This document shows positions 2,186-4,454 of a DNA stretch of 54,081 nt, piece by piece. A model generated the notes under the pieces. It did no database searches and was not told the origin of the DNA. It was given only the letters and a program-made list of their open reading frames with translations. The DNA is from an uncultured Bdellovibrionales bacterium. Its GTDB lineage: Bacteria; Patescibacteriota; Minisyncoccia; Moranbacterales; UBA1568. The stretch spans positions 1 to 54,081 of the forward strand of contig CAYOIM010000001.1 in assembly GCA_964404075.1 (NCBI GenBank), in the 5' to 3' direction. Every line of letters starts with the position of its first letter. Within the stretch, counting starts at the first letter, position 1. Position numbers and translations under genes: made by a program.

Positions 2186-2213
2186 TTGCAGAAAAGCGGT
2201 TTTATGCTATGAT
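2186..2213 (+). promoter_or_regulatory. Sigma70-like promoter candidate for the tRNA-Glu transcription unit
   Basis: TTGCAG (2186-2191), 16-nt spacer, TATGAT (2208-2213). It lies directly after the GH1 stop and about 40 nt upstream of the first tRNA-like segment. Confidence 0.4.
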
Positions 2214-2255
2214 GCTTCTGCAGTATTTCGCTGTTTTTTTGTTGCACGAGCACCT

Positions 2256-2286
2256 GGCCCCATCGTCTATCGGTTAGGACGCCGGC
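2256..2286 (+). other. tRNA 5'-half-like segment (acceptor strand, D-arm, 5' anticodon-stem strand) with no local 3' partner
   Basis: GGCCCCATCGTCTATCGGTTAGGACGCCGGC. Positions 2260-2283 are identical (24 nt) to 2341-2364 of the complete tRNA-Glu downstream. No T-arm or matching acceptor strand follows before 2337. Confidence 0.6.
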
Positions 2287-2296
2287 TTTATTCATT

Positions 2297-2436
2297 CCCG
2301 CACCGAAGGTTGAATAGGACTGCACAGAGCATATATGCCGCCATCGTCTATCGGTTAGGACGCCAGGTTTTCATCCTGGTAAGCGGGGTTCGACTCCCCG
2401 TGGCGGTACAAGAAAAAATTCGACTTTTGGTGCGGG
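2297..2436 (+). repeat. Long-range inverted repeat forming a 19-bp helix around tRNA-Glu
   Basis: 2297-2315 (CCCGCACCGAAGGTTGAAT) pairs with 2418-2436 (ATTCGACTTTTGGTGCGGG): 16 Watson-Crick and 3 G-U pairs. All three non-WC pairs are G-U only in the plus-strand RNA. The enclosed loop 2316-2417 (102 nt) contains the whole tRNA-Glu. Confidence 0.7.
2337..2408 (+). tRNA. tRNA-Glu (anticodon UUC)
   Basis: Hand-folded cloverleaf. Acceptor GCCGCCA/TGGCGGT (G1-U72). D-arm GTCT-ATCGGTTA-GGAC. Anticodon arm CCAGG-TTTTCAT-CCTGG. 4-nt variable loop TAAG. T-arm CGGGG-TTCGACT-CCCCG. Discriminator A. CCA is not encoded. Confidence 0.9.
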
Positions 2437-2440
2437 ACAG

Positions 2441-2475
2441 GCCTGGTAAGAGGGGTTCGATTCCCCTTTAGGCTA
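2441..2475 (+). other. tRNA 3'-half-like segment (3' anticodon-stem strand, variable loop, intact T-arm, 3' acceptor strand)
   Basis: GCCTGG-TAAG-AGGGG-TTCGATT-CCCCT-TTAGGCT-A. It parallels the 3' half of tRNA-Glu (CCTGGTAAG, GGGGTTCGA, TCCCC shared). It carries a compensatory T-stem change: AGGGG/CCCCT versus CGGGG/CCCCG. Confidence 0.6.
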
Positions 2476-4026: not shown

Positions 4027-4203
4027 AATTGTTCATGTCAAAATCCAAATTTCAAATACCAAAAGAGATTTCCTTTTTCAGTGTGAGATTTGAGATTACG
4101 ACTGAGTCACCTGTCAGGCTCGAACTCCTACCTACCGGCAGACAGGGACGACCCATGTACCCTGTCACTCATCTATACTACACCATCCACATCTTTTCAG
4201 CTG

Positions 4204-4276
4204 AGCCGGAGGACGGGCTTGAACCGACGACATCCAGTTTACAAAACTGGCGCTCTACCAACTGAGCTACTCCGGC
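4204..4276 (-). tRNA. tRNA-Thr (anticodon UGU)
   Basis: Minus-strand cloverleaf. Acceptor GCCGGAG/CTCCGGC. D-arm GCTC-AGTTGGTA-GAGC. Anticodon arm CCAGT-TTTGTAA-ACTGG. T-loop TTCAAGC. The T-stem GTCGG/CCGTC has one U-U mismatch. Confidence 0.8.
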
Positions 4277-4454
4277 AAGTTCTTCATACATACCCAGTAA
4301 ACATCATGAGTGGCAGGGCGAGCAAAACCGTCGCTCCACGCCCGAACGACTGAATCGTTCAGTCGGGCGGGTACCAACTGAGCCAAGGTAGCATATCCCT
4401 TCCGCAGAAGAAATGCTTTTTCATGGTATCAGGATTTCCACGAGATGGAAACAC

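Follow-up and report, generated by a model that had tools for sequence, protein, structure and literature searches.

Organization of the nested tRNA-Glu locus

The window analysed in this study, i.e. the whole stretch of 54,081 nt, contains near its left end a complete tRNA-Glu(UUC) gene enclosed by a long inverted repeat, on both sides of which lie the halves of another tRNA-Glu gene. The features of this nest and of a second nest in the same window are listed below, with the source of each assignment in brackets.

2186-2213, + strand: promoter-like block TTGCAG-16 nt-TATGAT of the putative resident tRNA-Glu gene
2256-2286, + strand: outer 5' piece, comprising acceptor strand, D arm and 5' anticodon-stem strand of the putative resident tRNA-Glu(UUC), GGCCCCA type (direct repeat D1)
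2287-2295, + strand: left junction TTTATTCAT, read as an anticodon-loop remnant plus the outer end of the element (junction comparison)
2296-2315, + strand: left terminal inverted repeat TCCCGCACCGAAGGTTGAAT, 5' strand of the helix (inverted repeat I1; shared CCCGCACC terminus)
2316-2336, + strand: inner spacer 5' of the cargo tRNA, with CATATAT at its end (comparison with G031)
2337-2408, + strand: cargo, a complete tRNA-Glu(UUC) of the GCCGCCA acceptor type (ARAGORN, Rfam)
2409-2417, + strand: inner spacer 3' of the cargo tRNA, CAAGAAAAA (read from the sequence)
2418-2437, + strand: right terminal inverted repeat ATTCGACTTTTGGTGCGGGA, 3' strand of the helix (inverted repeat I1)
2438-2441, + strand: right junction CAGG (alignment of four right ends)
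2442-2475, + strand: outer 3' piece, comprising 3' anticodon-stem strand, variable loop, T arm, damaged acceptor strand and discriminator A (direct repeat D2)
2489-2511, + strand: terminator-like hairpin with T-run, closing the transcription unit
4160-4318, - strand: second, older nest, with tRNA-Thr(UGU) at 4203-4276 between the arms CCCTGCCACTCAT (4318-4306) and ATGAGTGACAGGG (4172-4160) and with tRNA-like flanking fragments

The cassette proper (2296-2437) is 142 nt long and, with its short junctions, occupies 155 nt (2287-2441) between the outer pieces. The preliminary description of this DNA had reported the same anatomy, and every element it described was recovered. The inner tRNA-Glu(UUC) was called by ARAGORN at 2337-2409 and by Rfam at 2337-2408; the 24 nt which the outer 5' half has in common with it are positions 5-28, identical in both, and the outer 3' half shows a compensatory T-stem change (AGGGG/CCCCT, against CGGGG/CCCCG in the inner tRNA). 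The acceptor strands of the outer halves pair at five of seven positions, as reported, and the hairpin with T-run 3' of the block (2489-2505) was found to be terminator-like. The helix, given earlier as 19 bp, is an inverted repeat of 20 nt (2296-2315 / 2418-2437) with 17 Watson-Crick and three G-U pairs on the + strand. It is present in the minimum-free-energy fold with a pair probability of about 1.0; the fold has a z-score of -4.2 and none of 200 shuffled sequences was as stable. The half-whole-half layout with its helix is far beyond chance.

The promoter-like site had a mixed outcome: the block at 2186-2213 was not called in a consensus promoter scan, but the same TTGCAG-16 nt-TATGAT block and its leader are kept 5' of an intact tRNA-Glu(UUC) in three sister species (G001, G002 and G003). 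The block is probably the driver of the whole nest, which is probably a single transcript, as had been proposed.

The outer pieces are repeats of the inner tRNA (2255-2289 is an 89% direct repeat of 2336-2370, and 2442-2477 an 81% repeat of 2375-2410). An uninterrupted tRNA-Glu(UUC) gene is found behind the same promoter and leader in G001, G002 and G003, all of the same genus, which represent empty sites; G030, from another genus, has an uninterrupted copy as well. Because the gene is intact at the same promoter in the three sister species, the outer halves appear to be the original resident tRNA-Glu(UUC) gene and not a duplicate; of the "decayed duplicate" suggested earlier, the decay therefore stands and the duplication does not. 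Compared with intact UUC orthologues, the outer 5' piece has 2-3 differences in 31 nt (G001, G002 and G030) or 5 (G003), and the outer 3' piece has 4 over the 35-nt segment 2441-2475. Together this amounts to 6-7 changes per 66 nt, versus 1-3 per 72 nt among working orthologues from four species and two genera, and suggests that the halves are decaying under relaxed constraint. The outer 3' acceptor strand reads TTAGGCT instead of TGGGGCT, which breaks pairs 5-68 and 6-67, and the outer anticodon stem forms only with a bulge. With the insert removed, the flanks CCGGC-UUUAUUCAU and CAGG-CCUGG do not give a 7-nt anticodon loop, so that the joined halves have neither this loop nor the 7-bp acceptor stem of a tRNA; ARAGORN in intron mode, a check proposed earlier, returned no outer tRNA. 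We suggest that the outer halves be annotated as a pseudogene.

The inner tRNA scored 56.9 bits with the Rfam tRNA family RF00005 (threshold 29) and belongs to it. Since it is the only tRNA-Glu(UUC) detected in this 97%-complete genome, it is predicted to be the working gene. Its nearest relative is the genome's own tRNA-Glu(CUC), from which it differs at four positions including one compensated T-stem pair, and the cargo is therefore not necessarily foreign; no integrase was found near the tRNA-Glu(CUC) locus. CCA is not encoded in the 3' spacer as read from the sequence. This spacer, CAAGAAAAA, aligns with the CAAGCGCAA spacer of G031 and G025. On the other side of the cargo, CATATAT resembles by eye the arrangement "stop codon-CATAT-tRNA-Glu" at the same place in G031, and the spacer 2316-2336 may be what is left of the end of a nuclease gene that has been lost.

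A repeat family with tRNA cargo

Within this genome, the arms (CCCGCACC.../...GGTGCGGG) turned out to be the terminal inverted repeat of a repeat family, of which 9 to 11 elements are bounded by CCCGCAC.../...GTGCGGG. The terminus pattern gave nine matches against none for a reversed control pattern. Besides the window, the CCCGCACC/GGTGCGGG terminus occurs on contigs C2, C5, C7 (twice), C8, C13, C14 and C26, as well as around a GIY-YIG ORF (C28) and a tRNA-Pro(CGG) gene (C9). Empty, MITE-like members are about 120 nt long, and on C28 (2202-2494) the same ends enclose an 84-codon GIY-YIG nuclease gene (PF01541, 63 bits). The tRNA-Pro and tRNA-Val copies of this genome each lie within their own cognate tRNA gene, as does a tRNA-Thr enclosed by a variant arm. 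The MITE-like character of the family is seen in its shared terminal inverted repeats and in presence or absence at orthologous sites, the site being empty in G001, G002 and G003.

The repeat is present in 42 of 107 genomes of the family at 0 to 16 copies each (11 in G001, 0 in G003). An order-wide scan with the pattern arm + T-loop + arm identified a tRNA between repeat arms in 39 of 319 genomes and 28 of 106 genera, with one control match. All 21 tRNA-bearing copies inspected are co-oriented with, and inside, remnants of another tRNA gene, and the remnant is clearly cognate in 19, which are all that can be judged. Inserts of the family are located in one of three tRNA loops (anticodon, D or T). 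Direct TTGAC or GTCAAC sequences border the empty elements. The nests are bordered by TTCA on their left side and by CAGG, CAAG or TGAAG on their right side and show no clear target-site duplication; around the window cassette, too, none is evident.

The junctions also tie the window cassette to other members. Of the 19 positions of TTTTGGTGCGGGACAGGCC, 17 agree with the right end of the G001 tRNA-Val cassette, and G/ACAGG is invariant at four aligned right ends (window, G031, G025 and G001 Val). TTTATTCA, immediately 5' of the repeat, is also found in the tRNA-Val nests of G001 (C107) and of contig C5 of this genome, and the two window junctions (TTTATTCA|YCCCGCACC and GGTGCGGGR|CAGGCC) hardly differ from those of the tRNA-Val nests. 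The left arm with its junction had no homologue among the 107 family genomes, a metagenome scan with the left-arm 20-mer gave a single match, by chance and in a coding region, and no second copy of this particular cassette was found in the genomes and metagenomes searched. Two other origins of the arms, namely a decayed tRNA 3' end or D arm (judged by eye) and a tie to the ~110-nt element 3' of tRNA-Glu genes in this clade, were dropped since the arms are the terminus of a genome-wide repeat family; Rfam contained no family for the ~110-nt element or for the insert. An ACAGCGG-type, REP-like palindrome within tsaD is a different element.

The arms of the tRNA-Thr(UGU) nest resemble the CCCCGTCAC variant around tRNA-Thr(CGU) on C18 and tRNA-Val on C5, and the upstream part of this nest is common to G001 (C49). 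In the tRNA-Thr(CGU) nest on C18 the outer halves are intact, with the insert exactly between positions 35 and 36 and all seven acceptor pairs, and the outer halves of the G001 tRNA-Val nest are intact as well; many outer copies in relatives are truncated. A probable group I intron was detected in tRNA-His (C3:50-269; Intron_gpI, 39.5 bits, E 4e-8). The long "introns" which ARAGORN predicted for Val, Ile and Pro look spurious; Rfam backs none but that of tRNA-His.

A GIY-YIG ORF lies beside a replacement tRNA-Glu in four relatives (G031, G034, G011 and G216). In G031 the interval between GH1 and the old 3' piece contains a GIY-YIG ORF, CATAT, tRNA-Glu and a spacer, with old tRNA-Glu pieces on both sides, and this nuclease-plus-tRNA-Glu cassette is syntenic to the window site; G034 and G011 have related layouts adjoining tsaD. 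The window cassette (2287-2441) contains no ORF and hence no nuclease gene, whereas the syntenic cassettes of G031, G034 and G011 have one.

Origin and persistence of the nest

We consider it likely (probability about 0.8) that a small inverted-repeat cassette, whose only cargo is a complete tRNA-Glu(UUC), was inserted as DNA into the anticodon loop of the resident tRNA-Glu(UUC) gene. The starting points, each a direct observation, are the anatomy of the locus, the empty sites in sister species, the repeat family, its recurrence with cognate cargo and the link with a GIY-YIG gene. The cassette would have entered the anticodon loop in sense orientation and destroyed the resident gene, the halves of which would persist as decaying flanks. 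It has neither promoter nor terminator of its own, so that transcription of the cargo would start at the resident promoter (about 2186-2213) and stop at the resident terminator (2489-2511). The usual enzymes would then free the cargo from the precursor, with RNase P acting at the 5' end, followed by a 3' nuclease and by addition of CCA, and the cargo would take over all GAA decoding. Nests may be cognate only because an insertion has to bring a replacement for the broken essential gene if it is to survive, or to be spread by recombination via the tRNA halves on its flanks. The "recombination scar" of the preliminary description is thus true loosely, in the sense of an insertion, and not otherwise.

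The helix, on this account of a DNA insertion, appears to be not primarily an RNA device but two terminal inverted repeats read as RNA. A stem kept for an RNA function, e.g. as an RNase III site that frees or insulates the inner tRNA, is compatible with a DNA-level origin, but we regard such a function as rather unlikely here, and as the main reading of the helix, a role proposed for it earlier, it gives way to a multi-copy family of DNA elements. Twenty base pairs are enough for RNase III, the helix pairs with near certainty in the predicted fold, and the flanks, having 24 nt and a T arm in common with the inner tRNA, pose a real risk of misfolding. All three mismatches are G-U on the transcribed strand, for which the rough chance with three random changes is 1 in 27 to 1 in 8, and this hints at some RNA-level selection. 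Against this, the terminus is kept in sequence and not just in pairing across families and cargos, in tRNA-less elements and around a protein gene, which points to DNA recognition, and in other nests the sense strand shows A-C or A-A mismatches or bulges, an A-C mismatch being present in the tRNA-Pro nest.

That the insert is an intervening sequence, with the inner tRNA released, the arm helix cut off and the outer halves ligated (e.g. by RtcB) to give two tRNA-Glu per gene, is very improbable at this locus. RtcB is encoded (PF01139 at C25:7786-9159, 242 bits), but it is non-specific evidence, being present in 10 of 14 control genomes and common in bacteria without tRNA splicing. The positions of family inserts in tRNA loops leave room for a protruding helix, some nests such as the tRNA-Thr(CGU) nest and the G001 tRNA-Val nest keep their outer halves intact, and the sense-strand G-U mismatches would also fit. 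However, excision here would leave no 7-nt UUC loop, only five of seven acceptor pairs remain, and folding into the outer cloverleaf costs 17 kcal/mol relative to the best fold (-77.0 versus -94.3 kcal/mol), with an acceptor pair probability of 0.13. The outer halves evolve faster than working orthologues, and truncation of the outer copies in many relatives also speaks against splicing. An EndA-type endonuclease (PF01974) is absent from the genome although it was found in four archaeal controls, and there is no ribozyme match, RF00028 being silent in 2200-2520 even at E up to 1. The split-tRNA or intron reading proposed earlier is accordingly not upheld for this locus. A local rearrangement, i.e. 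a tandem tRNA-Glu duplication with deletions or gene conversion with tRNA-Glu(CUC) and an incidental inverted repeat, is already disfavoured and about equally improbable. It could draw on the four changes that separate the inner tRNA from the genome's own tRNA-Glu(CUC), on the inversion of tsaD in G001 and G003 relative to the window locus, and on the partial tRNA copies downstream of tRNA-Glu genes in this clade, but it leaves unexplained the terminus and junctions common to many elements and to nests of different tRNAs, the nesting in 21 of 21 inspected cassettes, and the nuclease gene at the same position in a relative. Least probable of all is a misjoining of two tRNA-Glu alleles by the metagenome assembler: the assembly has 64 contigs and the two tRNA types share 24 identical bases, but arms and spacers are unique sequence beyond what a misjoin can create, the site lies 2.3 kb into a 54-kb contig, and the same design and junctions recur in independent assemblies.

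Beyond the insertion itself, we incline, by a small margin, to regard these cassettes as an undescribed class of selfish DNA in Patescibacteria: inverted-repeat cassettes in tRNA loops, mobilised by a GIY-YIG protein of 80 to 90 residues and persisting through the full replacement they carry, which would drive tRNA gene turnover and horizontal replacement, sometimes several layers deep. The GIY-YIG protein would be the mobilising enzyme and insertion would proceed by cut-and-paste or by homing-type repair; we know of no GIY-YIG enzyme that acts on inverted-repeat ends. What directs the cassette to its cognate target may be the cargo tRNA itself, acting through homology or as an RNA. In a bolder version, fresh nests at other loci would also be processed as tRNA-bearing introns, for which the chance at the window locus is only a few percent.

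Insertion into an essential single-copy gene is normally barred to a mobile element, and these cassettes appear to evade this restriction by bringing a replacement. Such a family would explain abrupt changes of tRNA type in reduced genomes (the acceptor type GGCCCCA is replaced by GCCGCCA here, and the reverse is seen in G216), as well as the half-genes that litter tRNA loci and the genes missed or miscalled by tRNA finders. It also offers a testable pair, a very small nuclease and a conserved end sequence of 13 to 20 bp.

Comparison with known systems

Literature searches found no published description of a cassette family that breaks tRNA genes and carries the replacement, in agreement with the earlier statement that no bacterial equivalent has been described. 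Group I introns occur in bacterial tRNA anticodon loops (bioRxiv 10.1101/2020.01.27.920355), and the window insert likewise sits in the anticodon loop and would be co-transcribed with the tRNA; unlike them, it has no ribozyme core, consists of 155 nt that are mostly tRNA, and leaves a host tRNA that is unrestored and apparently decaying. Archaeal bulge-helix-bulge introns and split tRNAs (PMC3218864, PMC4033280) share with the nest a long helix beside the anticodon stem joining two tRNA halves. The host here is, however, a bacterium, as judged from its class II tRNA-Tyr and bacterial-type tsaD, and the geometry is not bulge-helix-bulge, with 9 by 4 nt in the internal loop; an EndA-type enzyme is not encoded and the halves appear non-functional. 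The rRNA genes of CPR bacteria contain short non-intron insertions, many of them under 200 bp, and the inserts that contain their GIY-YIG ORFs resemble neither group I nor group II introns (PMC11270868). Bacterial group and insertion into structural RNA genes are the same as here, but that study covers rRNA only, with the word tRNA absent, and the rRNA inserts carry no replacement gene.

Phage T4 SegB is a free-standing GIY-YIG homing endonuclease in a tRNA gene region (PMC2330249). The relatives G031, G034, G011 and G216 similarly have a small GIY-YIG gene with tRNA genes, and spread would be expected in the same way, the empty allele being cut and then repaired with the filled one as template, which co-converts the flanks. 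In contrast to our nests, SegB splits no tRNA gene, carries no nested replacement and is without inverted-repeat ends, and the window cassette for its part is without a nuclease gene.

Two kinds of mobile DNA come close in other respects. Integrative elements insert into tRNA genes and restore the displaced part, leaving partial copies at attL and attR. The cassette likewise has a tRNA gene as its target, brings replacement tRNA sequence and leaves the old pieces as fossils, but it brings a whole tRNA rather than the 3' end alone, has 142 nt without an integrase, and is nested instead of forming a 3'-end direct repeat. MITEs and mobile insertion cassettes (e.g. Correia elements and Rickettsia palindromic elements) are small, non-autonomous and bounded by terminal inverted repeats, and some have passenger genes. 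The family described here resembles them in its short conserved terminal inverted repeats, its many copies per genome, its patchy distribution between close relatives and the fact that the same ends enclose a protein gene in some copies and none in others. It differs in that the nests are without a clear target-site duplication, that the sole protein gene seen between these ends encodes a GIY-YIG nuclease and not a transposase, and that the passenger, a complete tRNA gene, has the same identity as the tRNA gene which the element interrupts.

Organization of the interrupted tRNA-Glu(UUC) locus

The G000 assembly (0.87 Mb, 64 contigs, 97% complete) carries within the window a tRNA-Glu gene broken into two outer halves by an insert, and the features of this locus are as follows.

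Features of the tRNA-Glu locus in the window
End at 2183: GH1 glycosidase gene, upstream boundary of the locus
Between GH1 and the outer 5' piece: conserved promoter-like block
2256-2286: outer tRNA-Glu 5' piece, 31 nt
2287-2441: insert, 155 nt
2442-2475: outer tRNA-Glu 3' piece, 34 nt
2489-2505: terminator-like hairpin
Start at 2610: tsaD, downstream boundary of the locus

A complete tRNA-Glu(UUC) was identified within the insert (ARAGORN; Rfam 56.9 bits), bracketed by inverted arms of 20 nt (2296-2315 and 2418-2437) that form 17 Watson-Crick and 3 G-U pairs. Every element of the nested layout given in the preliminary description proved accurate upon ARAGORN, Rfam, repeat and fold analysis, and the arm helix prevailed in the predicted fold of the region (z-score -4.2, pair probability about 1.0).

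Uninterrupted tRNA-Glu(UUC) genes with the same promoter and leader were found in three congeneric species (G001, G002 and G003), and the gene is likewise uninterrupted in G030, which belongs to another genus. These four working genes differ pairwise at 1-5 of 72 positions (1-3 of 72 for each against G030), whereas the outer halves of the window depart from them at 6-7 of 66 positions, with acceptor pairs 5-68 and 6-67 broken by two of the changes. The inner tRNA has the acceptor stem GCCGCCA/TGGCGGT, unlike the outer gene, differs from the tRNA-Glu(CUC) of contig C8 by 4 changes, including one compensated T-stem pair, and was the sole tRNA-Glu(UUC) found by ARAGORN in the genome. Judged by sequence comparison, the outer halves are the resident tRNA-Glu(UUC) gene; from their changes, the two broken pairs and the uniqueness of the inner gene, we infer that the inner gene works and that the outer one persists as a relic whose constraint is relaxed. 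The idea of a decayed duplicate was thus half right: the orthologous loci bear out the decay, and the outer halves are not a duplicate, being the resident gene that is intact in G001-G003.

The leader motif CGCTGTTTTTTTGTTG was observed 10-25 nt 5' of several tRNA genes (Glu, Trp) in the genus, at window 2186-2245 and at loci L039 and L037. The tsaD gene lies 3' of tRNA-Glu on the same strand in the window (2610 onward), G034 and G011, and 5' of it on the opposite strand in G001 and G003 (L042, L044); this difference in orientation between the window and G001/G003 indicates that an inversion occurred at the junction within the genus.

Nested tRNA genes and the repeat family

The G000 genome was scanned for CCCGCAC followed by GTGCGGG within 1.5 kb, elements with extended complementarity being taken, and further nests (complete cargo tRNAs within broken tRNA genes) were located.

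Nests and repeat elements in G000
C9:14419-14522 (L107), minus strand: tRNA-Pro(CGG) nest, 104 nt, arms CCCGCACCAAATTT / AAACTTGGTGCGGG, cargo with encoded CCA
C5:27690-28010 (L109): tRNA-Val(UAC) nest, intact tRNA-Val between CCCCGTCAC arms, then a partial nest
C18:12100-12480 (L108): tRNA-Thr(CGU) nest, arms CCCCGTCACACA / TGTGTGACCGGGG, variant arm CCCCGTCAC
Window 4160-4318, minus strand: tRNA-Thr(UGU), 13-nt arms CCCTGCCACTCAT / ATGAGTGACAGGG, tRNA-like fragments on either side
C2, C5, C7 (twice) and C8: five elements of 117-123 nt
C13, C14 and C26: three ORF-less elements whose end is the longer CCCGCACACCAAATATG, the ATG of the C28 ORF kept
C28:2202-2494 (L110): 293-nt copy, with the same ends as C13, C14 and C26 around an 84-codon ORF that begins at the ATG of the CCCGCACACCAAATATG-type end

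For the Pro, Val and Thr(CGU) nests, Rfam confirmed the cargo tRNA. The tRNA-Pro(CGG) insert interrupts the anticodon loop of an outer tRNA-Pro that retains 7 of 7 acceptor pairs. In the tRNA-Thr(CGU) nest, which looks fresh, the outer tRNA-Thr is split exactly between positions 35 and 36 and has an intact acceptor stem. The tRNA-Thr(UGU) region of the window, whose upstream part is common to G001:C49, probably represents an old nest of this type, a weaker case than C5 and C18. On the evidence of their terminal sequences, the helix arms of the tRNA-Glu locus are ends of this repeat family.

The pattern CCCGCAC-70 to 140 nt-GTGCGGG was detected in 42 of 107 family genomes at 0 to 16 copies per genome (G001, 11; G002, 1; G003, 0), and the reversed control gave almost no matches. 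A stricter pattern with a T-loop between the arms matched 39 of 319 genomes and 28 of 106 genera of the order (control, 1 match), the tRNA starting just past the arm in most matches listed. Among the tRNA-bearing copies read (3 in G000, 6 in the family and 12 in other families), all 21 lie co-oriented within remnants of another tRNA gene, mostly in the anticodon loop and otherwise in the D or T loop. The remnant is clearly of the same tRNA species as the cargo in 19 copies, the other two not being judgeable, and the cargos include Glu, Pro, Val, Thr, Leu, Trp, Met, Ala, Arg and Lys. The window junctions TTTATTCA/YCCCGCACC and GGTGCGGGR/CAGGCC (slash, junction) are near-identical to those of the tRNA-Val nests of C5 and G001, the latter (tRNA-Val(UAC), G001:C107:2230-2570, L099) being a three-layer 'Russian doll'; another three-layer nest occurs in G139:C2. 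G216 has the window's arrangement in reverse: a GCCGCG-type outer tRNA-Glu holds a GGCCCCA-type cargo. A second copy of the exact window cassette was not found in the 107 family genomes or in a metagenome scan with the left-arm 20-mer.

Several other tRNA peculiarities were recorded. On contig C3 (50-269, minus strand; L106), a tRNA-His contains an insert of about 199 nt that is a probable group I intron (Intron_gpI, 39.5 bits, E 4e-8, full model length), and a second tRNA-His is uninterrupted. ARAGORN found only 35 tRNAs in the whole of G000, with only one Met-type gene and no Asp, Asn or Ile(GAU) tRNAs; inserts or gaps in the assembly may conceal some of these. Downstream of tRNA-Glu genes, several species have a terminator and a conserved element of about 110 nt (G000:C8:11395-11470, L039; L042 700-810; L043 1340-1445; L037 330-700), which matched no Rfam family. 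An inverted copy of the tRNA 3' end opens this element and a direct copy, varying jointly with the upstream tRNA, closes it; in G002:C28, where part of the array is masked as N, the element is in tandem. The intact tRNA-Pro(UGG) gene is preceded by partial copies of it in tandem, with the anticodon loop replaced (G000:C22:2850-3300; L037 575-690; partly masked as N).

Nuclease association and origin of the nests

The C28 ORF encodes a GIY-YIG nuclease (PF01541, 63 bits), and a second GIY-YIG ORF (C51, about 170-420) has a 12-bp inverted repeat of its own around it. At the syntenic site of G031 the order is GH1, promoter, old tRNA-Glu 5' piece, GIY-YIG ORF, CATAT, complete tRNA-Glu(UUC), CAAGCGCAATACGATTTTACTCAT, GACAGG and old 3' piece, and the window's CATATAT-tRNA-CAAGAAAAAATTCGACTTTTGGTGCGG-GACAGG aligns with its counterpart there; in G034 and G011 the old 5' piece, a GIY-YIG ORF and a new tRNA-Glu are followed by tsaD. 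From this alignment and these similar layouts, the window cassette looks like a version of such elements without the nuclease gene. The old tRNA-Glu copies of G034, G011, G031 and G025 also carry in the anticodon loop a two-hairpin insert of about 30 nt (e.g. CCAAAGGGTGACCAGCCTCTGGCTGG; L034 1180-1215; L063, minus strand, about 895-860; L064/L066; L065), which the window's outer tRNA-Glu lacks.

At this locus, DNA was inserted into a gene that had been intact, and the inserted element is a member of a repeat family that recurs with cognate cargo and is associated with GIY-YIG genes. As no promoter was called within the insert (2287-2441), the resident promoter would drive the cargo, which the usual tRNA enzymes would then mature. 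The GIY-YIG protein may move or spread the cassettes; either only insertions bringing a cognate replacement would survive, or recombination through the outer halves would propagate the nests.

Removal of the insert as RNA with joining of the outer halves is highly improbable at this locus: RtcB is present in G000, but EndA is absent, no ribozyme matched in the insert region, and excision would not rebuild the anticodon loop. The related suggestion of a split tRNA was not supported, as the double cloverleaf that it requires folds at -77.0 kcal/mol against -94.3 for the best structure, with an outer acceptor pair probability of 0.13. All 3 non-Watson-Crick pairs of the window helix are G-U on the sense strand, as had been pointed out, which by our estimate would arise by chance roughly once in 8 to 27 cases. 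This pattern leaves room for a secondary RNA role of the window helix; it is not seen in other nests. Local duplication without a mobile element does not account for the element ends common to many copies. Misassembly is likewise highly improbable: it could not make the unique arms, and the same design occurs in independent assemblies.

The statement that no bacterial equivalent has been described agrees with literature searches on nested, interrupted or split tRNA genes and on GIY-YIG nucleases with tRNA genes or Patescibacteria, which found no such arrangement. Among the nearest published systems are T4 SegB (PMC2330249), new group I introns in tRNA genes (bioRxiv 10.1101/2020.01.27.920355) and inserts in the rRNA genes of CPR bacteria (PMC11270868).
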